Shown here one piece after another: positions 1,293 to 16,891 of a DNA stretch of 64,000 nucleotides. The notes beneath the pieces are model-generated. The model saw only the letters and a list, made by a program, of their open reading frames with translations, was not told the DNA's origin and did no database searches. The position numbers and the translations under genes were made by a program. The stretch lies in UHGV virus genome UHGV-1352483; one strand, given 5' to 3'. Source of the stretch: a virus. How positions within the stretch are numbered: the first letter of the stretch is position 1; each line of letters starts with the position of its first letter.

Positions 1293-2741
1293 TTGCAAAG
1301 TAATAATCAATTAAAGGAGATAAATGAAATGAATAAAGTAAATCCGTCAATAAAGAAATCAACTAGATTTGATACTGAAAGATTGGCTGGTGGTTCAGGA
1401 GCTTTAGTAGCTAAACAGAATAATACAGCATTGTTGAAAAGAGCAGTCCTCGCTAATTTATTATGGGAGGATATAGCTTATATGGATGGAGAATCTGTAG
1501 CTGATGAAATCAAGAGATTGATACCATTATGCCCTGCTGAAGATGTATATGATATAGCTTTGGCTGCAAGAACAGAACAGAAGTTAAGACATACTCCATT
1601 GTTCCTTGCATCAGAAATGTGTAAATATCCTGAACATAAACTATTTGTTTCAGACTTGTTGCCTAGGATAATTACAAGAGCGGATATGCTTGCTGATTTT
1701 CTTGCTATTTATTGGAAGGAAGGTAAGAAACCTATTGCCAATCAAGCAAAGAAAGGTCTTGCGGAAGCCTTTCATAATTTCAATGAATACAAGTTTGCAA
1801 AGTATGATAGGGAATCGGAAATCAAACTGAGGGATGTTTTATTTCTTGTTCATCCTAAACCGAATAATGCAGATGAGGAAGCTCTCTTCAAGAAGATTGC
1901 AGAGAGAAATTTGAGGACTCCCGATACATGGGAGGTAGCATTGTCAGCAGAAGGGAATAAGAAAGAAACATGGGTCAGATTGATTGAAGAAGGTAAGATA
2001 GGAGGACTTGCAATGCTGAGGAATATATCAAATATGATGAAAGCAAGTGTACCGATAAAAGTTATTGAAGAGGGACTAAACAGTATTCAATCTTCAATGC
2101 TCTTACCTTTTGATTTCCTTAAAGCATTCAAACAGAATCCTCAGTTTAGAAGACAGATTGAAGATGCAATGTTAAGTTCTTATGAACACCTTCCTAAACT
2201 TCCAGGCAGAACTCTATTTATATTGGACTGTTCAGGTTCAATGACAGCAAATCTGTCATATAGGTCTCAGCTTACAAGGCTTGATGCTGCAAAAGCTATG
2301 GCTATGCTGGCTATAAACCAATGTGAGGATTATGAGCTTGTATGTACAGCAGGAAATGATAGTAGAAAAAAAGGAGCTCACACAATAATCAATTATCCCT
2401 CAAGAGGATTTGATTTGCTAAGACAGATAGATGATACAAGTCATTTGATAGGTGGAGGAGGAATATTCACAAGACAATGTTTGGAATGGTGTAAGAGTAA
2501 ATATGCAGCAGGGGAACCTTTTGAGAGAATAATAGTATTCTCTGACTCTCAGGACTGTGATTATCCTGAAAAGAGAGTTCCCAAACCATTTGGGAAATAC
2601 AATTATATCTGTGATGTTTCATCAGAACTTAAAGGTGTAGACTATAAGGGAATATGGACAGCGGAAATAAGTAGTTTCAGTGCACATTTCCTTACCTATA
2701 TTGCAGCTATGGAAGGTCTGGAAAATAGATTTGAGGAATAA
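1293..2741 (+). CDS. rsr: Ro60/TROVE-domain + vWA protein (Rsr-like)
   Basis: The C-terminal vWA has the MIDAS motif LFILDCSGSM, then AAKAMAML and RIIVFSDSQD. These parallel the human Ro60 blocks FLLAVDVSASM, AAAMCMVV and VFIVFTDNET. N-terminal segments LAMLRNISNMMKASV, LFLVHPKP and RHTPLFLASEMC parallel Ro60 LLRNLGKMTANSV, LRLSHLKP and TTKQEPMLFALAIC, compared against the remembered human sequence. Two tRNA-like RNAs lie immediately downstream. Confidence 0.75.
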   Translation: MQSNNQLKEINEMNKVNPSIKKSTRFDTERLAGGSGALVAKQNNTALLKRAVLANLLWEDIAYMDGESVADEIKRLIPLCPAEDVYDIALAARTEQKLRHTPLFLASEMCKYPEHKLFVSDLLPRIITRADMLADFLAIYWKEGKKPIANQAKKGLAEAFHNFNEYKFAKYDRESEIKLRDVLFLVHPKPNNADEEALFKKIAERNLRTPDTWEVALSAEGNKKETWVRLIEEGKIGGLAMLRNISNMMKASVPIKVIEEGLNSIQSSMLLPFDFLKAFKQNPQFRRQIEDAMLSSYEHLPKLPGRTLFILDCSGSMTANLSYRSQLTRLDAAKAMAMLAINQCEDYELVCTAGNDSRKKGAHTIINYPSRGFDLLRQIDDTSHLIGGGGIFTRQCLEWCKSKYAAGEPFERIIVFSDSQDCDYPEKRVPKPFGKYNYICDVSSELKGVDYKGIWTAEISSFSAHFLTYIAAMEGLENRFEE

Positions 2742-2841
2742 GATAAAGAAAAAGTACCATTAGTGATTATTAGGGTTACTTCTATAATAATTTGAACAGG
2801 TCAAAACAATACCCTAATGACTGTTCTATGGTACTAATATG

Positions 2842-2971
2842 AAGGGGATAGCTCAGTCTGGTAGAGCACGTATAATACTGTATCTATTGTTATCATCTTT
2901 GGATGTATTGCTGATACAGTTACTTCAGGCTTTTAACCTTGTGGTCGTAGGTTCAAATCCTACTCCCCTTC
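2842..2971 (+). ncRNA. tRNA-like RNA with a ~55-nt insertion (candidate Y RNA / YrlA-like tRNA mimic)
   Basis: Perfect 7-bp acceptor stem AAGGGGA (2842-2848) with TCCCCTT (2964-2970). Canonical positions 8-9 TA. D-arm GCTC-AGTCTGGTA-GAGC (2851-2867). T-arm GTAGG-TTCAAAT-CCTAC (2947-2963). Lys-like anticodon loop CTTTTAA on a weak stem, then a 5-nt variable loop. About 55 extra nt containing an 8-bp hairpin (ACTGTATC/GATACAGT) sit between the D-arm and the anticodon stem, so it is not a canonical tRNA. Confidence 0.6.
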
Positions 2972-2976
2972 CTATA

Positions 2977-3107
2977 GGGGCATGTTACTCTCTGGTATTT
3001 CTAATGAACCTAGGATTAATTAGGATATCAACAGGTGGGAGAGTATCTTATATCTCTGAAATGCAAATAGGAGATTAATAAGTGAGGTTCGAGTCCTCCA
3101 TGCTCCT
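2977..3107 (+). ncRNA. second tandem tRNA-like element (degenerate; candidate second Y RNA-like RNA)
   Basis: Starts 5 nt after the first element. The 7-bp acceptor-like stem GGGGCAT (2977-2983) pairs with ATGCTCC (3100-3106) with one G.U pair. T-arm TGAGG-TTCGAGT-CCTCC (3083-3099) has a canonical TTCGAGT loop. No canonical D or anticodon arm was found between them. Confidence 0.35.
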
Positions 3108-3262
3108 CAATTAAAGAAAAAAAAAAATAAGATTAGTGTATTTAACGCTTACTTCAATTAATCAGTGCAGAATATAAAAATAGCGTTATAACTGTTCTAC
3201 CTTATTATCAAGCCTACTATTCAATAAAAAGAGTAGTAGGCTTTCTTTATTTATAGGATACT

Positions 3263-5524: not shown

Positions 5525-6750
5525 CAAGGGAAGAGGTATCTAAGAAAGCAGTAAAACTAATGGAGGGCAATAAGAATGTTGCCCTTCAATGGGCTACTGG
5601 AGTAGGTAAATCGAAAGCTGCCCTTGATATAATCCAGAGTCTTAAAGATAAAGGGGAATTAAGTAAGGGAGTATTACTCTGTTATGCCGAGAAACCTCAT
5701 TTAATGAATTGGATGAATGAATTCAGGAAATGGGATAAAGATGGACTACTTGCTTTGGTAACTCCTACAACTTATGCCTCTTTAAAGAATCGTACTGGGG
5801 AAGAATACTCCCTTATAATCCTTGATGAAGGACATCATGCAGGTTCCAATCTTAGACTTGATATCCTTTCCTTGATTAAATCTGACCATGTTCTCTTATT
5901 ATCAGCCACTCTACATGATGTTATTGTACAGGACTTAGAACGTATATTCGGAAAGTTTGTTAACTACAAGATATCTTTAAAGGATGCAGTAAAAGGAGGG
6001 ATACTTCCTGAACCTAAGATATTTGTGATACCTTTGGAGTTGGATGATTATTATCCTATACATCAGGTTATACAGACAAGAGGGGCAAGTAAAAAGAGAG
6101 TTACAGTCAAGTGTACTTATGCTGAAAGGTGGAAATATCTGAAAGATAAGAAGAACTATCCCAATATTAAACTTATAATGAGCTGTACTGCCAAAGAGAA
6201 GAATAGTTTCCTTACAGAACAATCTGACTACTGGTATAAGCAGTTTGTAAGAGTGAGAAATGAGGCTATAAAGAATAAATGGCTTCAGATTGGGTCTGAA
6301 AGGAAGAGGTTCTTAGGGGAATGTAAGACAGATATATCAAAAGTTCTATTGAGGAAACTCAAGAAGAAAAGGTATATCTGTTTCTGCTCCAGTATAGACC
6401 AAGCTACAAAGTTAGGAAAAGATAATGCCATACATTCTGAGAGAAAGAATTCCCTTGAGATAATAGAGAAGTTCAATAACAAGGAGATAAATAATCTCTT
6501 TGCTGTAGGAATGCTACAGGAAGGACAGAATCTTGAAGGAATAGAGGCTGGAATAATCATCCAGCTTGATGGTCAGGAAAGAGGTTTTGTACAAAAGGCT
6601 GGAAGGGCAATGAGAGCAGAATCTCCTCTAGTATTCATTCTTTATTATAAAGGAACAAGGGATGAGGATTATCTCAACAATGTACTGTTGGATAAAGTAG
6701 ATACCCAGTATGTAAAAGAAGTTGAAGACATTTATGAATTAGAGGTATGA
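5521..6750 (+). CDS. SF2 (DEAD/DEAH/SNF2-like) helicase
   Basis: Walker A GVGKSKA, DEGH box (IILDEGHH), motif III SAT (LLSATL) and motif VI QKAGRAMR, in canonical order. Confidence 0.65.
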   Translation: MTREEVSKKAVKLMEGNKNVALQWATGVGKSKAALDIIQSLKDKGELSKGVLLCYAEKPHLMNWMNEFRKWDKDGLLALVTPTTYASLKNRTGEEYSLIILDEGHHAGSNLRLDILSLIKSDHVLLLSATLHDVIVQDLERIFGKFVNYKISLKDAVKGGILPEPKIFVIPLELDDYYPIHQVIQTRGASKKRVTVKCTYAERWKYLKDKKNYPNIKLIMSCTAKEKNSFLTEQSDYWYKQFVRVRNEAIKNKWLQIGSERKRFLGECKTDISKVLLRKLKKKRYICFCSSIDQATKLGKDNAIHSERKNSLEIIEKFNNKEINNLFAVGMLQEGQNLEGIEAGIIIQLDGQERGFVQKAGRAMRAESPLVFILYYKGTRDEDYLNNVLLDKVDTQYVKEVEDIYELEV

Positions 6751-7340
6751 TAGTAACAATAGATGAACAAAAGTGTGAGAAGAGTGGAATATCATTTCCT
6801 CAGGTACTAGCTATACTGTTGGTAAAGTCTGGTGTAGAACTTCCTAAGTTATTTACAGAATTGGAGGAAAAGAAGATTCTCGTAAGGGATGATATATTTG
6901 GAGGATATCTGGTAACTCAAAGATGGGATGATATAGTATCCAATATCATATTGGATTCTGATAAGGGAAGTCAGTCTGTAGACAGGCTTGATAACCTTGC
7001 AACAGAATTGATGAAGATATTTCCAGAAGGAAGGAAAGAGGGGTCTTCACAATATTGGAGAGGCAATAGGAAAGATATTACTTTGAGGTTGAAGAAGTTC
7101 TTTAAGCTTTATGGCAATAAATGGAAAGACAGGGAGATACTGGATGCAGCCAGAAGATATATTGAATCATTCAATGGGAACTATTCTTATATGAGAGTAT
7201 TGAAGTATTTTATATGGAAGGATGAAAGGAAGATGGATGAAAACGGGGATATGTATATTGACCCTAAATCTGACCTTGCAACCTTGCTTGAGAATGAGGA
7301 TACCGTACTTTCAGGAGACTGGACTAGTGAATTAAATTAA
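6747..7340 (+). CDS. hypothetical protein
   Basis: 197-aa ORF translationally coupled to the helicase by an ATGA overlap. Confidence 0.4.
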   Translation: MIVTIDEQKCEKSGISFPQVLAILLVKSGVELPKLFTELEEKKILVRDDIFGGYLVTQRWDDIVSNIILDSDKGSQSVDRLDNLATELMKIFPEGRKEGSSQYWRGNRKDITLRLKKFFKLYGNKWKDREILDAARRYIESFNGNYSYMRVLKYFIWKDERKMDENGDMYIDPKSDLATLLENEDTVLSGDWTSELN

Positions 7341-10941: not shown

Positions 10942-11949
10942 TTGAATGATATGGCTATTCATATAGGCAAACCAAGTATAACTCTTGAGAAGATTCTTGA
11001 GGTAGTAAGTGAGTTTGATATATTATATCACTATTTTGGTATAAACTCCTTACCCAAGTTAATAAAGTCCCCATTAAGACCTGATAATCATCCTTCCTTT
11101 GGCATTTATAGCCCAGGGGGAAACAAGGTATATTGGACTGACCTTGCAAATAGGGACAAAGGGGGAATATTTGATTTACTTATGAGATATTGGGGGATGA
11201 GTTACAATGAGGTACTTACCAAGATTTGGGAGGACTTACCTAATTTCTCAAGTAAGAAACCATTGATTTCAAAGTTGACTGCCAAAGGAGCTCCAATGCC
11301 TGTTAAAATATCCCATACAGAGCTTGAATGTAAAGTGAGGGATTGGAAAGAACATGATATAGAGTATTGGAATTCTTTTGGAATCAGCCTAGAGTGGCTG
11401 AAATATGCAGACATTTATCCGATATCTCACAAGATAATTATTAAGGATGGTAAAAGGTATGTATTCGGAGCAGACAAATATGCTTATGCCTATGTTGAAA
11501 GGAAAGAAGGCAAGATAACATTAAAGATATACCAGCCATTCAATAAAGATGGATATAAATGGACTAACAAACATGATATGTCTGTAATATCATTATGGAC
11601 TAAGGTTCCTGAAACAGGGGACAGAATATGTATCTGCTCTTCTATGAAGGATGCCTTATGTTTATGGAGTAATACAGGGATACCCGCCCTGTCCATACAA
11701 GGAGAAGGGTATAATATGAGTGATACAGCAGTTAGTGAACTCAAAAGGAGATATACGAAAGTATATACACTCCTGGATAATGATGAAGCAGGTCTGAAAG
11801 ATGGATTAAAGCTGTCAGAAGCCACTGGGTTCACTAACCTCGTATTACCAAACATTGCAGGATGTAAGGATATAAGTGATATATATAAACATCTGCAAAA
11901 CAGACAAGAATTCAGGAAGATAATCTTGGATTTGTTTGAGAGAAATTAA
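10942..11949 (+). CDS. DnaG-type primase (TOPRIM domain)
   Basis: C-terminal TOPRIM signature: conserved E in GEGYNMSD followed by the DxD block TLLDNDEAG. The N-terminal RPDNHPSFGIY resembles a primase zinc-binding region that has lost its cysteines. Confidence 0.55.
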   Translation: MNDMAIHIGKPSITLEKILEVVSEFDILYHYFGINSLPKLIKSPLRPDNHPSFGIYSPGGNKVYWTDLANRDKGGIFDLLMRYWGMSYNEVLTKIWEDLPNFSSKKPLISKLTAKGAPMPVKISHTELECKVRDWKEHDIEYWNSFGISLEWLKYADIYPISHKIIIKDGKRYVFGADKYAYAYVERKEGKITLKIYQPFNKDGYKWTNKHDMSVISLWTKVPETGDRICICSSMKDALCLWSNTGIPALSIQGEGYNMSDTAVSELKRRYTKVYTLLDNDEAGLKDGLKLSEATGFTNLVLPNIAGCKDISDIYKHLQNRQEFRKIILDLFERN

Positions 11950-11974
11950 TAAAAAAAAAACAAAAAAAAAGATT

Positions 11975-12703
11975 ATGGAAACTAACGGAAGAAACATTAC
12001 GATTATTAACAATAAGACTCAAAGTCAGAAAGTTATTGAAGGTTCTACAGCAACTACATTAGGTGAACTAAAGGCTGAAATGAGCAAACTTGGTATTCCT
12101 TATGTAGGAACTGAGTTTTATGAAGGCCATATTCGTGCAACCCTAAAGGATGATGCTTCTATCTTACCTTCAAATATTGAATATAAAGGTCAGGTTGTTA
12201 ATGATTTGACTTTCATTCTTTCAACACCTAACAAGAAGATTGAATCAGGTATGGCAACAAGAAAAGAATTATATGCGGAAATCGCAAAGAGAGGTTTAAA
12301 AGGGGATGCTATTGCAAAGTATGGTAAGAACTTCACCCAATGTTCAAACAGTCAGTTGGAAGAGCTTATCAGTAAGTCAAAACCTGCTGCAAAGGCAACT
12401 CCAGAAGCTAAAACTCCTGTAGTTGAACTAAAATCCAAGAAAGTAATTTCTAAGGTTGCAACAGTAAAATCAGGTAAGGATGTAGAAGTAAAGAGCACTA
12501 GTAATCTGGAAAGAGCATTCAGACAACTTGTTGAGGCCTTAAACAATGTATGCTTACTTACATCAGCAGATTATGCCAATATAATGGGTACTCTTGCAGG
12601 AACTGTAGCAGAGCCAGCTGCACCAGTTGAAAAGAAAGCAACTCTTAAAGTAAAGGATGCTAAGATTTCACAGGCTGAAATCAATGAAATGCTAGGTATT
12701 TGA
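11975..12703 (+). CDS. Lys/Ala-rich protein (possible histone-like DNA-binding)
   Basis: Start moved to the ATG at 11975, after the A10-C-A9 tract (11950-11970). Sequence is KPAAKATPEAKTPVVELKSKKVISKV. Followed by a hairpin plus T9 terminator. Confidence 0.4.
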   Translation: METNGRNITIINNKTQSQKVIEGSTATTLGELKAEMSKLGIPYVGTEFYEGHIRATLKDDASILPSNIEYKGQVVNDLTFILSTPNKKIESGMATRKELYAEIAKRGLKGDAIAKYGKNFTQCSNSQLEELISKSKPAAKATPEAKTPVVELKSKKVISKVATVKSGKDVEVKSTSNLERAFRQLVEALNNVCLLTSADYANIMGTLAGTVAEPAAPVEKKATLKVKDAKISQAEINEMLGI

Positions 12704-12715
12704 TATTAACAATAT

Positions 12716-12748
12716 TAAGGGGAATCATTGAGATTCCCTTTTTTTTTA
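12716..12748 (+). terminator. rho-independent terminator
   Basis: 8-bp stem GGGGAATC / GATTCCCC (12719-12726 and 12732-12739), 5-nt loop, then T9 (12740-12748). Confidence 0.6.
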
Positions 12749-12757
12749 TAATGTATA

Positions 12758-13954
12758 ATGTCTATGACTGAAGCAGATAAAGAAAGAATAGAAACAATAT
12801 ATAACGATATTATGGAGAAGCCTAACAGAATATATGAGATATTCTTAGACTTCTTTGGAGAAGAATTTGTAGATATGCAGGGCTGCCTTTCATTGGAGGA
12901 TGTATTATCTATCTTTGAAGATGCTCCTTTACCTGATAGTAATATACGGTTAAAAGGGATGATAACAGGAAGCAGAATCAACCCATTTATACTTGTACAT
13001 TTTCCTGAGGTAAGAGTTGAAAATGAATATGATGATTTTACAATAGTGCATCATTTATATGTAAAGGTAGAATTTGATACAGAGGGAAGAGGAAAGGGAT
13101 ATTTTACAATGAACAGGTCTGATTATCAATATACTCATTTGGTTAGCGATTATATGCATTCTCATGTTCCTGGATTAAATTTGGATAACTTAAGTGAATT
13201 TAGGAGTGTATGTACTGGGAGAGGGCCAATCAATAGTACCCTTGCTACTTTAGCCATAAACTTTGATGATGCTATGTGGCAGTTACTATGCCTTGAACTT
13301 AGTAGGTATGTACAGGTAGAATCTATTGCTGGAGTACCTTATAGAAGGATAACCAACATAGGAATCCCTACTGGAAATGCAATACCGATATCTCCAAACT
13401 TCAGTCCTAACAGCTTTGGATATCATAATATTAGCCCCATTACAAGGAATGATATCCTACAGAATTTTGTAAAATATCTTCTAAATAAGAAGATTCTCAA
13501 GTTCAATTATACTGATGGAATATATAATATTGCCATGTCTGATAAGGAAAGGACTTTGGTAATATCTAGAACTTTTATCGAGTTTTACAATAGTGGGTAT
13601 AGAGGCATTCCTTATGCAATGAATTTACCTCAGCTCCTATATAAAGGTATTCTTACAAAATGTAAGTTGTCTCAAAGTAAGTTTATCCAATTAACAGGGA
13701 GGGGTATAGACCCTAGTAGATTCCGAGCTCTCGAAGGTGATGAAATGTTTACATTTAGAGGGGAACCAGTGAGATTTCATTTAATAGATAACGTTCCTAC
13801 TGAGGATGAAGAAGAGAATTTTATCTATATTCTATCTATATACATCATGAATAAAATAATAAAAGGAATATTAACCGTTTTAAATGGAGGTTATGGAAGA
13901 CCAAATAGAGAAAGCTCCAGCATTGGAGTTGGTGAAAGGGTCAGATACATTTAA
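12758..13954 (+). CDS. hypothetical protein with a possible C-terminal beta-grasp strand ending in GG (candidate Ubl substrate/modifier)
   Basis: 398 aa. The C-terminus reads ...NKIIKGILTVLNGG followed by a 20-aa tail (YGRPNRESSSIGVGERVRYI), compared with ubiquitin LHLVLRLRGG. First gene after the terminator. Its last 62-71 nt overlap the JAB gene start out of frame. Confidence 0.35.
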   Translation: MSMTEADKERIETIYNDIMEKPNRIYEIFLDFFGEEFVDMQGCLSLEDVLSIFEDAPLPDSNIRLKGMITGSRINPFILVHFPEVRVENEYDDFTIVHHLYVKVEFDTEGRGKGYFTMNRSDYQYTHLVSDYMHSHVPGLNLDNLSEFRSVCTGRGPINSTLATLAINFDDAMWQLLCLELSRYVQVESIAGVPYRRITNIGIPTGNAIPISPNFSPNSFGYHNISPITRNDILQNFVKYLLNKKILKFNYTDGIYNIAMSDKERTLVISRTFIEFYNSGYRGIPYAMNLPQLLYKGILTKCKLSQSKFIQLTGRGIDPSRFRALEGDEMFTFRGEPVRFHLIDNVPTEDEEENFIYILSIYIMNKIIKGILTVLNGGYGRPNRESSSIGVGERVRYI

Positions 13955-15077
13955 ACTTATTGTATCTGAACAATTAGAGAAAAAGATTCGTTTCTTATGT
14001 AAAAAAATATGGAAGGATGAATGGTCAGGAGTCCTGTTCTACAAAGTTGAGGGGGATTTTGAAGACACAGAGAATCCTCTGGTAATAAGATGTATAGACT
14101 TATATCAGATGGATGAAGGTACTTCTACATTCACTGATTTTTATATGTCAGCAGATGTAGCAGGTTATGTTGTAGACCATCCTGAACTGGCAGCAGGAGG
14201 AGTATATCAAGGATTAATCCATTCGCATAATACTATGAGCACTTTCTTTAGTGGGACTGATACTAATACCTTACTTAAAGAAGGTATGGATATGCCTCAT
14301 TTTGTATCCTTGATTGTAAACAATGCAGGAAAATACAGTGCTGCTATTACCAGACATGCCTACTCTGAGGCTGTAGTTACTGAAACGGTAACTTACCCTA
14401 CATGGGAAGGGGATTCAATCGAAGTTGAACAGCATTATAAGGAAACTAATGAATACATAAAGTATGATACCCTTATAATAGAAATTGAAGGGGAATCAAG
14501 AGAGTTCGAGGAAGAAATGGAAGCTAGAATGGAGGAAATAAGAGAAACTAAAAAACCCCAGACAATAAGGTCTTGTACTTGGAACCGTCCAGCCCTTAAT
14601 GATTACTTCCCCAAATACAGTAAGAATGTAGTAGGGGAGATAATGGAAACTAAGGAAACAGAAATGCCTACTCAGACTATTGAGAAACCTACTGCTCAAG
14701 ATGGGGATGATAAACTTCTTCCTTATGGAACAGTAGAAGTAGATGAGGGAATAGTTAATGCTATTGCAAGGCAACTTATAACAGGAAGCATACTGATTAC
14801 CAGTAAAAGCAAGTTAGACTTGGATAAGTGGGCATCAAGTATGAATAGCTTGTATGAAGCCCGATTTGAGGATATAGAAGACTTTAAGACTTTTGCTACT
14901 TCATATGTTGATTTCATTATAAATAGTGTATCTGATAAATCATTATTCAATATGGGATTTGATTTAGGAGAAGTAGCAGCATTGGTAGCATTTGAAGTGA
15001 GAGAACTATTAAGTAAACTGCCTAAGAATAAATGGCTTAATTTTTATGTAGAATTATTAGAGGATTATATAATATAA
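13884..15077 (+). CDS. JAB/MPN (JAMM) metalloprotease
   Basis: Exact JAMM signature HxHx7Sx2D: HSH-NTMSTFF-S-GT-D (nt 14219-14260), with upstream acidic residues. Long acidic C-terminal extension. ATG at 13884 or 13893, the latter preceded by GGAGG. Confidence 0.65.
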   Translation: MEVMEDQIEKAPALELVKGSDTFKLIVSEQLEKKIRFLCKKIWKDEWSGVLFYKVEGDFEDTENPLVIRCIDLYQMDEGTSTFTDFYMSADVAGYVVDHPELAAGGVYQGLIHSHNTMSTFFSGTDTNTLLKEGMDMPHFVSLIVNNAGKYSAAITRHAYSEAVVTETVTYPTWEGDSIEVEQHYKETNEYIKYDTLIIEIEGESREFEEEMEARMEEIRETKKPQTIRSCTWNRPALNDYFPKYSKNVVGEIMETKETEMPTQTIEKPTAQDGDDKLLPYGTVEVDEGIVNAIARQLITGSILITSKSKLDLDKWASSMNSLYEARFEDIEDFKTFATSYVDFIINSVSDKSLFNMGFDLGEVAALVAFEVRELLSKLPKNKWLNFYVELLEDYII

Positions 15078-15080
15078 GAT

Positions 15081-16121
15081 ATGACATTAGAAGAATTAAT
15101 AAGTCCCGAATTCTCTTTTCCTGAAATACCCTTAAATGGAAGATTGCCTGGAGGATTAACATGGATTGGAGATTATACACAGTTAGTTGATGCAGTAAGG
15201 GCAGTAGCACATGGTTCTCTTAGGATAGAAAGAATAGACCCTACTTCAAGTGCAGGTGCATTTAATATAGTAATCATCCATCCTATAAGTGAACGTAGAT
15301 ATTCGTATTGGGTTAATACAGCCTGGAAGAATCTATTTACGGCAGCCAGTTCCTTGGTAACTAATGAAACTGAAGGTATGGATATAATCCCTCCCAATCC
15401 TGAAAGTATAGAGATATCAGAAGTAACAAGCAGATTCAATGGGGCTATTTGGTTTGAGAAAATAAGCAATACAAGAGTTACTCTTGCGGGAGTAGGGGGA
15501 ATTGGAAGTTATGTGGGATTTCTATTAGCTAGAACTCATGTAGGTCGTATTACTTTATGGGACGATGATAGGGTTGAAGAAGGCAATATGTCAGGACAAC
15601 TATATTCAAATGCGCATATAGGAGGTTATAAAGTAGACGCCCTTGCCAGTCAGATGGTTAGCTATGCTAATTTTAAGGATGTATTAGCAATAAGAGTTAG
15701 AATTACCTCTGAAACAGAAGTTGAAGCTGTTACCATATGCGGATTTGATAATATGCAGGCAAGAAAGGACTGTTATCAGGCTTGGAAAAACAGGTTATCA
15801 GCCAATCCTGAGCTTGCAAATGAGGCAATATTCATTGATGGAAGATTAGCAGCAGAAGAGTTTCAGGTTCTGGCAATACAGGGAAATGATGAAAGGGCAA
15901 TGAAGGAGTATGAAGATAAATGGTTGTTTGACAGCAGTGAAGCTGAACACACTATTTGTAGTTATAAACAGACTTCATTTATGGCTAACATGATAGCATC
16001 GGTTATGGTTAACCTGTTAGTTAACTTTGAAGCCAACAGATGTGATTTACTTGTACTAAGAGATGTACCATTCCTTACTTCTTATACTGCTGAAACCATG
16101 TTCTTTAAAGTTGAATTATGA
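15081..16121 (+). CDS. ThiF/MoeB-family E1-like adenylyltransferase
   Basis: Rossmann nucleotide-binding signature LAGVGGIGSYVGFLLARTHVGRITLWDDDRVEEGNMSGQLY, compared with E1/MoeB GxGxxG...D.D.V..SNLNRQ. The start is 4 nt after the JAB stop. Confidence 0.65.
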   Translation: MTLEELISPEFSFPEIPLNGRLPGGLTWIGDYTQLVDAVRAVAHGSLRIERIDPTSSAGAFNIVIIHPISERRYSYWVNTAWKNLFTAASSLVTNETEGMDIIPPNPESIEISEVTSRFNGAIWFEKISNTRVTLAGVGGIGSYVGFLLARTHVGRITLWDDDRVEEGNMSGQLYSNAHIGGYKVDALASQMVSYANFKDVLAIRVRITSETEVEAVTICGFDNMQARKDCYQAWKNRLSANPELANEAIFIDGRLAAEEFQVLAIQGNDERAMKEYEDKWLFDSSEAEHTICSYKQTSFMANMIASVMVNLLVNFEANRCDLLVLRDVPFLTSYTAETMFFKVEL

Positions 16122-16891
16122 TAGCACAGAGTTATTTAAATTATCTGAGGAGGGCTTTCTCAAGAAACTTTGAGCGTGCAGTTGCCCGCCCGATGGGTGC
16201 TATAGAAGGGGCAAGTCAAGCCCTCAGTCTGTATATGAGGGTGGCATCCACTGATAGGGATATTCCTGCATATTTAACAGGTGAATATTACCTCTTAAAT
16301 TCAACCAATGAATCCTCTCCAGCAGCAGTTACAGCATTATTAGCATGTGGTAATTATATACCAAATGGAAGAGGAACTGGGGATGCTCTTAGTAAATATC
16401 TTAAAGAAAGGAGTACATATGATAGAATGGCATGTATAAGCATTTTGGGTTCTAGTCCAGTGCTCTATAGATATTATATTGGACACGGGATGATATTGAA
16501 TAATGATAAGGAGCCATTACTGCTGGCTAGTAGAAGTATCGAAGTTGGTATCGAAAATATCACTGGTACCTCTATTATAAAGAAAGGAGACTTTAATCTC
16601 CATGTATCTCCCAGAGTATATGATAATAGCAATCCTATGGAAGAAGCTATTAGAAGGAAGTTAATTCCTGCCTTTATGGAGATGGATATAGAAAATATGT
16701 TTCCATCCAGTCCTGATTATTGGGCATATGGAAAAAAGCCTGAGAAGAAACTCATAATTGGAGATTCTATTGATAGTTTCTTTTTCAGACCTACTTTGTC
16801 CCATCCTACTGAGTTCTCGAATGATGAAATAGGTGATTGGTTGGAAGAGCATTCAGAAGAGATTATAGACAATATTGTAATACAGGAATGA
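16118..16891 (+). CDS. hypothetical protein
   Basis: 257 aa. ATGA overlap with E1 upstream and with the uracil-DNA glycosylase gene downstream. No HPN/E2-like motif found. Confidence 0.4.
   Translation: MIAQSYLNYLRRAFSRNFERAVARPMGAIEGASQALSLYMRVASTDRDIPAYLTGEYYLLNSTNESSPAAVTALLACGNYIPNGRGTGDALSKYLKERSTYDRMACISILGSSPVLYRYYIGHGMILNNDKEPLLLASRSIEVGIENITGTSIIKKGDFNLHVSPRVYDNSNPMEEAIRRKLIPAFMEMDIENMFPSSPDYWAYGKKPEKKLIIGDSIDSFFFRPTLSHPTEFSNDEIGDWLEEHSEEIIDNIVIQE

Follow-up and report, generated by a model that had tools for sequence, protein, structure and literature searches.

A compact block of genes between the primase gene and the uracil-DNA glycosylase (UDG) gene of a crAss-like phage raises the question of whether a virus of bacteria carries its own machinery for the conjugation of ubiquitin-like proteins (Ubl) and, if so, which of its genes supply the modifier and the enzymes that would attach it. 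The locus lies in the virus genome UHGV-1352483, of which a stretch of 64,000 nucleotides (hereafter the window, whose coordinates are used unless another locus is named) was analysed. A sequence-only reading of the window had proposed a terminator-delimited cassette at 12716-16891, in which a JAB peptidase would trim the C-terminus of a 398-residue protein to Gly-Gly for use by a ThiF-type activating enzyme (E1), with no obvious conjugating enzyme (E2). The core of that proposal, namely that the phage has a system of the Ubl type with an E1 and a JAB protein that looks active, has been supported and strengthened by the present analysis, but the tag, the E2 and the boundaries of the cassette had been misplaced. 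The locus is read here, with somewhat more confidence than doubt, as a phage-encoded Ubl conjugation cascade of five genes in the replication (middle-gene) module, arranged as gene U (Ubl precursor), a leaky terminator, gene A (E2-like), gene B (JAB metallopeptidase), gene C (E1-like) and gene D.

The candidate modifier is the product of gene U (11975..12703, + strand, as are all features of the cassette), which sits between the primase gene and the terminator hairpin, just upstream of the range that had been assigned to the cassette. Counted from the ATG at 11975, the protein is 242 residues long; the program call for this open reading frame (ORF) begins too early, at a TTG at 11936 within the end of the primase gene. 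The 25 nt immediately ahead of the ATG (11950-11974) form a spacer with two A-runs, of 10 and 9 A's, and 20 A's in total. The U family has 1658 members, and its homologs include gp79 of the cultured phage crAss001 and gp53 of Flavobacterium phage FpV4, in each of which it is the gene ahead of the A-like gene. The most conserved part comprises the first 92 residues (11975-12250), ending in P-x-K-K-[IV]-x-S-G, and among 85 distinct relatives the serine of this terminal pair is kept in 82 and the glycine in 83. An AlphaFold2 model shows a domain of the order b-b-a-b-b...b with a predicted local distance difference test score (pLDDT) of 83-94, followed at residues 87-92 (N-K-K-I-E-S-G as printed) by a segment with pLDDT <50 that resembles the free tail of ubiquitin. 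The model thus gives U a beta-grasp domain and a flexible tail that closes on a glycine, as expected of a modifier; the predicted tail K-I-E-S-G (residues 88-92) is encoded at 12236..12250, and S91-G92 is proposed as the site of processing and activation. The fold matches are led by DIX (score 8.4), the Ubl domain of HERPUD2 and TINCR (7.7 each), and the Ubl domain of UHRF1 and FAT10 (7.3 each), followed by ubiquitin (about 6.8), Atg12 (6.6), MoaD2 (6.4) and a bacterial multi-ubiquitin protein (6.3); the top matches are Ubl domains of the eukaryote type, not ThiS or MoaD. Profile searches of U against Pfam, PHROGs, PADLOC and NCBIfam returned nothing useful, and neither U nor B had a significant match among Protein Data Bank (PDB) sequences in profile or sequence searches.

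Past residue 92, the U model continues into an extension of ~150 residues made of a helical domain, a disordered linker rich in Lys, Glu, Ala and Pro, and more helices. The helical domain that follows the S-G site was considered as a SAP/HeH DNA-binding motif, which was dropped as it had no profile support. In three relatives the gene is split two codons past S-G (SGKF*, SGKF* and SGIC*), so that a Ubl product of ~92 residues plus a two-residue extension is possible, like a ubiquitin precursor. The split genes lie at 1956-3159 in cr106_1 (locus L002), at 5688-6901 in locus L078 and at 5604-6905 in locus L082, with the interruption at one shared place. The gap in cr106_1 is filled by an ORF for an HNH endonuclease (2236-2751), after which the C-terminal part goes on as a separate ORF; the gaps of the other two are of ~450 nt and hold no called family. 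A group I intron was considered for these gaps and rejected, as Rfam at gathering thresholds finds none there. L082, a related crAss-like contig, does have a group I intron of full length at 12109-12352, downstream of the cassette (RF00028, 84.8 bits, E 2.6e-20). Another insertion of the homing-endonuclease type occupies the same small region in locus L058, where a 600-nt insert with an HNH-like ORF (6374-6974) separates the Ubl gene from the terminator hairpin.

The enzyme that would activate such a modifier is encoded by gene C (15081..16121, 346 residues), which starts 4 nt past the stop of B and comprises a variable N-terminal domain (residues 1-115) followed by a ThiF fold (116-346). The assignment made from the sequence, a ThiF-type E1 directly after the JAB gene with the Rossmann signature GVGGIGS...LWDDDRVEEGNMSGQLY, is borne out by a match to ThiF (PF00899) at E 6.9e-18. 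The closest relatives among PDB sequences are MccB (1.4e-8) and Uba5 (7e-7). Among 84 relatives, each of R118 (15432-15434), the GxGGxG loop (G137-x-G-G at 15489-15500), D161, N169, Q173, K184, D223 (15747-15749), R228 and C293 (15957-15959) is kept in all 84. As to the E1/MoeB signature, the Gly-rich loop, the arginine finger R118 and the Asp residues are thus in place, but the signature is not that of a textbook MoeB: the arginine of the N-L-x-R-Q motif of ThiF, MoeB and MccB is replaced by Gly172 (15594-15596; N-M-S-G-Q in the window), which is itself invariant in 84/84 relatives. With all other ATP-site residues retained, Gly172 may point to a separate subfamily of E1 enzymes or to a changed mode of nucleotide binding. 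For the catalytic cysteine, which the sequence-only reading had suggested looking for, there is a candidate in C293. It directly precedes the helix behind the crossover region, the position at which ThiF, MoeB and Uba5 carry their reactive cysteine, and is thus a candidate catalytic residue by alignment rather than by structure. The protein falls below every curated family cut-off, scoring 65.9 bits against 159 for ThiF, 42.5 against 449 for MoeB, 34 against 144.75 for PRTRC_ThiF and 30 against 450 for UbaA, and its best match to the E1-E2 models of PADLOC (E 1.4e-13) covers only the generic Rossmann part (query residues ~124-214).

Gene B (13884..15077, 397 residues) encodes the JAB/JAMM metallopeptidase, with the JAB domain in the N-terminal ~170 residues and a conserved C-terminal domain behind it. 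The exact JAMM motif first seen in the sequence (HSH-x7-S-x2-D) is confirmed and can be completed with its glutamate to E46...H113-S-H115-x7-S123-x2-D126 (E46 at 14019-14021, the remainder at 14220-14261), and the match to Prok-JAB (PF14464; E 1e-6) lies above the cut-off, at 29 bits against 25. PADLOC gives a weak match to the JAB profile of CBASS (cyclic-oligonucleotide-based antiphage signalling systems; E 9e-4). The earlier worry that the protein might be a pseudoenzyme is met by the invariance of its zinc-site residues: among 85 distinct relatives, 84 have E46, H113, S114 and H115 (the last one is gapped there) and all 85 have S123 and D126, and all of the JAMM residues recur in FpV4 gp51, which makes for an active-looking enzyme as far as residues can tell.

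The E2 that the sequence-only reading had missed may be the N-terminal half of gene A (12758..13954, 398 residues), for which the modelled fold is UBC/E2-like and the H-S-H...Cys is invariant; the E2 call is moderately supported. The AlphaFold2 model, built from 41 sequences, has a mean pLDDT of 80.4 and reaches 85-98 across residues 1-190 (12758-13327), the approximate extent of the UBC-like domain, where a long helix leads into a meander of four strands, after which come a loop and two helices; Atg10 is named among the comparisons for this half. The candidate catalytic residues are H134-S-H136 (13157-13165) and C152 (13211-13213), the His and Cys being invariant in relatives. Foldseek found no match for the model in PDB (best E 0.24), a comparison of the family with a UbcH5B sequence by hhalign was negative, and Pfam, PHROGs, PADLOC and NCBIfam returned nothing useful. 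The family is unnamed and large, with 2365 clusters at 50% identity (E<=1e-3) and listed members of 314-458 residues, and no precomputed Pfam domain occurs among the 120 A-family matches listed.

The C-terminal end of A, where the modifier had originally been sought, calls for a different explanation. The protein does end in ...IIKGILTVLNGG plus 20 residues, as had been described, but its role as a Ubl precursor trimmed to Gly-Gly is not credible. The GG is peculiar to this phage, which has L-N-G-G-Y-G-R where homologs have L-N-[YF]-x-[YH]-G-[RK], so that Tyr stands in place of one glycine, and Lys, Arg or Asn in place of the other; the conserved residues near the end are Asn376, Tyr379 and Gly380. 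Tyr379-Gly380 is 92-96% conserved among 150 diverged representatives, and in all 86 loci having the motif the start codon of the conserved B N-terminus (M-E-E-K...L-E-L-V) is embedded in its codons (TAT GGN), read in the +1 frame. In the window this ATG lies at 13893, with the GG codons (GGA GGT) just to its 5' side, and it is probably the conserved start of B. The 20-residue tail of A is accordingly the other reading frame of the B N-terminus, and the AlphaFold2 model has the last strand of A followed by a 19-residue helix, not a free tail. The dual-coding overlap comprises 62 nt in the window (13893..13954; Y379-I398 of A) and measures 47-89 nt in the 86 related loci plus the window, always with B in the +1 frame and with both frames about equally (weakly) conserved. 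An A-B frameshift fusion was considered and had no support beyond the overlap; since B has its own conserved ATG, the two are treated as overlapping genes. It could still be argued that A is itself the modifier, trimmed by JAB after ...LNGG or Tyr-Gly and activated by the E1 directly without an E2, as in CBASS, given that the conserved Tyr-Gly is followed by a disordered tail of 10-25 residues with a hydrophobic end, that some database members (P0129, P0249) stop right after Y-G, and that residues 299-359 are modelled in the order b-b-a-b-b-b, compatible with a beta-grasp. We nevertheless regard this as very improbable, because the conservation of Tyr-Gly coincides with the JAB ATG and the GG is unconserved.

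The cassette also contains gene D (16118..16891), which encodes a fast-evolving protein of 257 residues and whose start overlaps the C stop. Its homologs include crAss001 gp75 (24% identity, E 2e-18) and a protein of cr106_1, and D follows C in 75/83 loci. A search of this interval for a UBC/E2 fold had been suggested; D has no invariant Cys or His and gives no match in Pfam, PHROG, PADLOC or NCBIfam. Its conservation in FpV4 was considered but is not shown, as only a 20-residue motif matches and a fifth gene is not detectable there.

To assess the constancy of the arrangement, the ORFs from 83 phage loci were searched with hidden Markov models built from our own alignments. In 75 of these loci, including crAss001 gp79-gp75, the genes stand in the order U-A-B-C-D; the remaining loci are truncated by contig ends or split. 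A megablast of the window DNA against 50,697 phage records gave no match, so that the phage is new at the level of DNA; the relatives were found at the protein level and reveal a conserved block of crAss-like phages. In crAss001 the order is primase gp80, gp79 (U), gp78 (A), gp77 (B), gp76 (C), gp75 (D) and UDG gp74, of which gp79, gp78 and gp75 are publicly labelled 'hypothetical', gp77 a 'metalloprotease domain' protein and gp76 a 'thiamine biosynthesis protein' ThiF. The distant phage FpV4, outside Crassvirales, has primase, UDG, gp53, gp52 (A-like), gp51 (JAB) and gp50 (E1, only 228 residues); it thereby keeps U-A-B-C, with an E1 that lacks the variable N-terminal domain. The genes that flank the cassette are invariably primase and UDG or other replication genes, and its placement in the replication block of a crAss-like phage, which had been recognised from the window, is upheld by these flanks. 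In crAss001, transcription of the replication module follows the middle-gene pattern, from 10-30 min (PMC8375218), and by their position gp75-gp79 would belong to this middle, replication-associated class. A scan of 185,579 species genomes returned only 11 loci, seven with all five genes in order and four partial or cut by contig ends, with none in a different order. Most of these are phage-size contigs within metagenome bins, and two lie in long contigs. One of the latter, a 374-kb contig of Puia sp. (L094), has U-A-B-C (D was not detected) inside a block of DnaB, primase, PD-(D/E)XK nuclease and PolA; the other, a 640-kb contig of a Bacilli bin (L092), has U-A-B-C-D beside two large Big_2/amidase genes on the other strand. 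Each of the two may represent an integrated or plasmid-like phage, or else a chimera of the assembly.

As regards its boundaries, the cassette as first drawn (12716-16891) has a terminator on one side only. An intrinsic-terminator-like hairpin of 10 pairs followed by a T-run (12717..12749; -14.8 kcal/mol, z -2.7) separates U from A, B, C and D, which form four close-packed + strand ORFs. At the 3' end, by contrast, the stop of D overlaps the start codon of the UDG gene in the ATGA at 16888-16891, and no + strand terminator was found; the description of the cassette as terminator-delimited therefore fails for its 3' side. A hairpin plus T-run of unrelated sequence occurs at the matching position in 41 of 55 distinct U-A spacers, including those of crAss001, cr106_1 and FpV4. 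These hairpins are GC-rich, and their sequence varies between crAss001, cr106_1, FpV4 and other lineages. Since the position is kept and the sequence is not, the hairpin suggests a conserved attenuator by which the modifier would be made in excess of the enzymes.

Taken as a cascade, the five genes would work as follows. U would be overproduced, as part of the transcription halts at the hairpin behind it. JAB would then cut U after ...K-I-x-S-G, freeing a beta-grasp domain with a C-terminal glycine on a flexible tail of ~9 residues, plus the 150-residue C-terminal part. The E1 would adenylate this glycine with ATP and probably form a thioester on Cys293, from which the Ubl would pass to Cys152 of A and thence to lysines of phage or host proteins. 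D, or the C-terminal half of A (residues ~230-380), may pick the target, and JAB may also reverse the conjugation.

The same set of genes could serve other ends, of which sulfur transfer and counter-defence need to be weighed against conjugation. U might act as a sulfur carrier like ThiS or MoaD, with JAB exposing its glycine (as Mec+ does with CysO), the E1 adenylating it and the resulting thiocarboxylate giving sulfur to a cofactor or to a thio-modified nucleotide from the nucleotide and DNA metabolism block of the phage. The C scores fall far under the curated ThiF and MoeB cut-offs (65.9 against 159 for ThiF), nothing that encodes a rhodanese domain, a cysteine desulfurase, ThiG/ThiH/MoaE or a sulfurtransferase of the TtuA type was seen in the cassette or its immediate neighbours, and an E2-like protein with an invariant cysteine, which such pathways do not need, is a constant member. 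Together with the eukaryote-type fold matches of U, these points make a sulfur carrier quite improbable. It is also conceivable that the cassette neutralises host Ubl-based immunity, such as the tail tagging by Bil or the priming by Cap2 of cGAS/DncV-like nucleotidyltransferases (CD-NTases), with JAB stripping host conjugates and the other proteins acting as decoys or tagging defence proteins. C does match the PADLOC profiles of the CBASS E1-E2 protein (Cap2) at E 1e-13 to 1e-5, JAB weakly matches its CBASS counterpart, the set of Ubl, E2, JAB and E1 mirrors Bil operons, and D evolves fast, as arms-race proteins often do. The PADLOC matches are, however, limited to the generic Rossmann part of the E1, and the cassette is stable and syntenic in the replication module over very distant phages (crAss-like phages, FpV4 and the Puia contig), unlike a variable accessory island. 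Counter-defence moreover overlaps the conjugation cascade, being the same chemistry for a different purpose, and as a separate explanation it appears improbable.

A more sceptical explanation dispenses with conjugation altogether: U would be a stable Ubl adaptor or a DNA-associated protein, the E1 would adenylate another carboxylate on a peptide or small molecule, and JAB and the E2-like fold would be non-catalytic or unrelated scaffolds. The closest solved relatives of the E1, namely MccB, PaaA and TcdA, activate no Ubl, and the moderate support of the E2 call fits this explanation as well. So does the lack in C of one of the two canonical phosphate-binding arginines (N-[MT]-[SG]-G-Q against N-L-T-R-Q of MccB), which also weighs against the conjugation cascade itself. 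Further points against the cascade are that the His-to-Cys spacing of 16-18 residues in A is longer than in canonical E2s and that U could instead be a permanent Ubl-domain protein. On the other side, the JAMM residues, the E2-like His and Cys and the E1 cysteine are all invariant, which argues for catalysis; the S-G tail of U and its split variants point to a free Ubl C-terminus; and the strict co-occurrence of Ubl, E2-like, JAB and E1 genes is a signature of Ubl pathways (PMC1779556). An arrangement without conjugation is consequently judged unlikely.

Comparison with known systems places the cascade proposed here nearest in composition to the Bil operons (BilA Ubl, BilB E2, BilC JAB, BilD E1), which we take to be the same as operon class 6d. 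The two share the parts list, one further fast-evolving protein and the chemistry proposed for them. They differ in that Bil is a bacterial defence-island system and the present cassette belongs to the replication module of a lytic phage, and in that here the E2-like protein has 398 residues with a large extra C-terminal half and the Ubl is fused to a 150-residue extension. The E2s of class 6d lack the classical His and have a His after the Cys (Iyer et al., 2006; PMC1779556), whereas in A a His-x-His precedes the Cys. Neither U nor A is matched by a PADLOC or NCBIfam model, although Bil-specific profiles may not be in PADLOC 2.0. Type II CBASS has an E2-E1 fusion (Cap2) and a JAB (Cap3) and conjugates the C-terminus of the cyclase, whereas here E1 and E2 are separate genes and the Ubl is a dedicated one; no CD-NTase or effector match was found in the cassette or its neighbours. 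The Bub operons (BubA Ubl, BubB E2 and BubCD of Citrobacter) show no sequence similarity to the cassette, which differs from them further by its JAB peptidase and phage-replication context.

The remaining comparisons share fewer parts with the cassette. PRTRC cassettes (ParB-related, ThiF-related) of plasmids and integrative elements likewise combine a Ubl-type E1 and JAB on a mobile element beside DNA maintenance genes, but C reaches only 34 bits against the PRTRC_ThiF cut-off of 144.75 and B 14.3 against 101.8 for PRTRC_A, and no ParB is annotated or detected nearby. Family-level assignment was obtained for none of Bil, CBASS and PRTRC. The archaeal SAMP/UbaA/JAMM system and the bacterial systems ThiS-ThiF, MoaD-MoeB and CysO-Mec+ share with the cassette a beta-grasp protein ending in glycine, E1-like adenylation and a JAB acting on the glycine end, but they have no E2, and C scores 30 bits against 450 for UbaA and 66 against 159 for ThiF. 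Membership in the ThiF/MoeB sulfur-carrier families finds no support either in the scores of C (65.9 against 159 and 42.5 against 449 bits) or among the neighbours, where no partner genes were seen. Lambdoid and T1-like phages encode a tail-assembly pair of TAPI (Ubl) and TAPK (JAB+NlpC) (PMC1779556), which is the sole phage pairing of a Ubl with a JAB met in the open-access literature searched. That pair belongs to the tail module and has neither E1 nor E2, whereas the cassette has both and lies in the replication module, between primase and UDG, and B has no NlpC/P60 match. No description of the cassette in crAss-like phages as a Ubl system was found in the open-access literature searched, and in public records the labels of the E1 and JAB genes are given to each gene on its own.

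With confidence and doubt in about equal measure, it is proposed that crAss-like and related Bacteroidota phages run their own complete Ubl-tagging pathway during replication, consisting of a cleavable Ubl fusion, a previously unrecognised His-x-His...Cys family of E2, an E1 without a canonical arginine and a JAB, by which phage or host proteins would be tagged so as to control replication or disarm the host. In bacteria, Ubl conjugation has to our knowledge been linked until now either to defence of the host (Bil, type II CBASS and Bub) or to sulfur transfer; a complete set of Ubl, E2, JAB and E1 that forms a stable core of the replication module of a phage would place such chemistry with the virus as well. 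Among the phages of the human gut the crAss-like ones are the most abundant, and since the cultured phage crAss001 carries the set as gp79-gp75, the proposal is directly testable. If true, it would assign functions to five conserved genes that are now unnamed or misnamed in public phage records and would add a large, unrecognised E2-like family (the 2365 clusters of A). Ubiquitin is made as a cleavable fusion in eukaryotes, and gene U would then provide an example from a bacterial virus of a Ubl made in the same manner.

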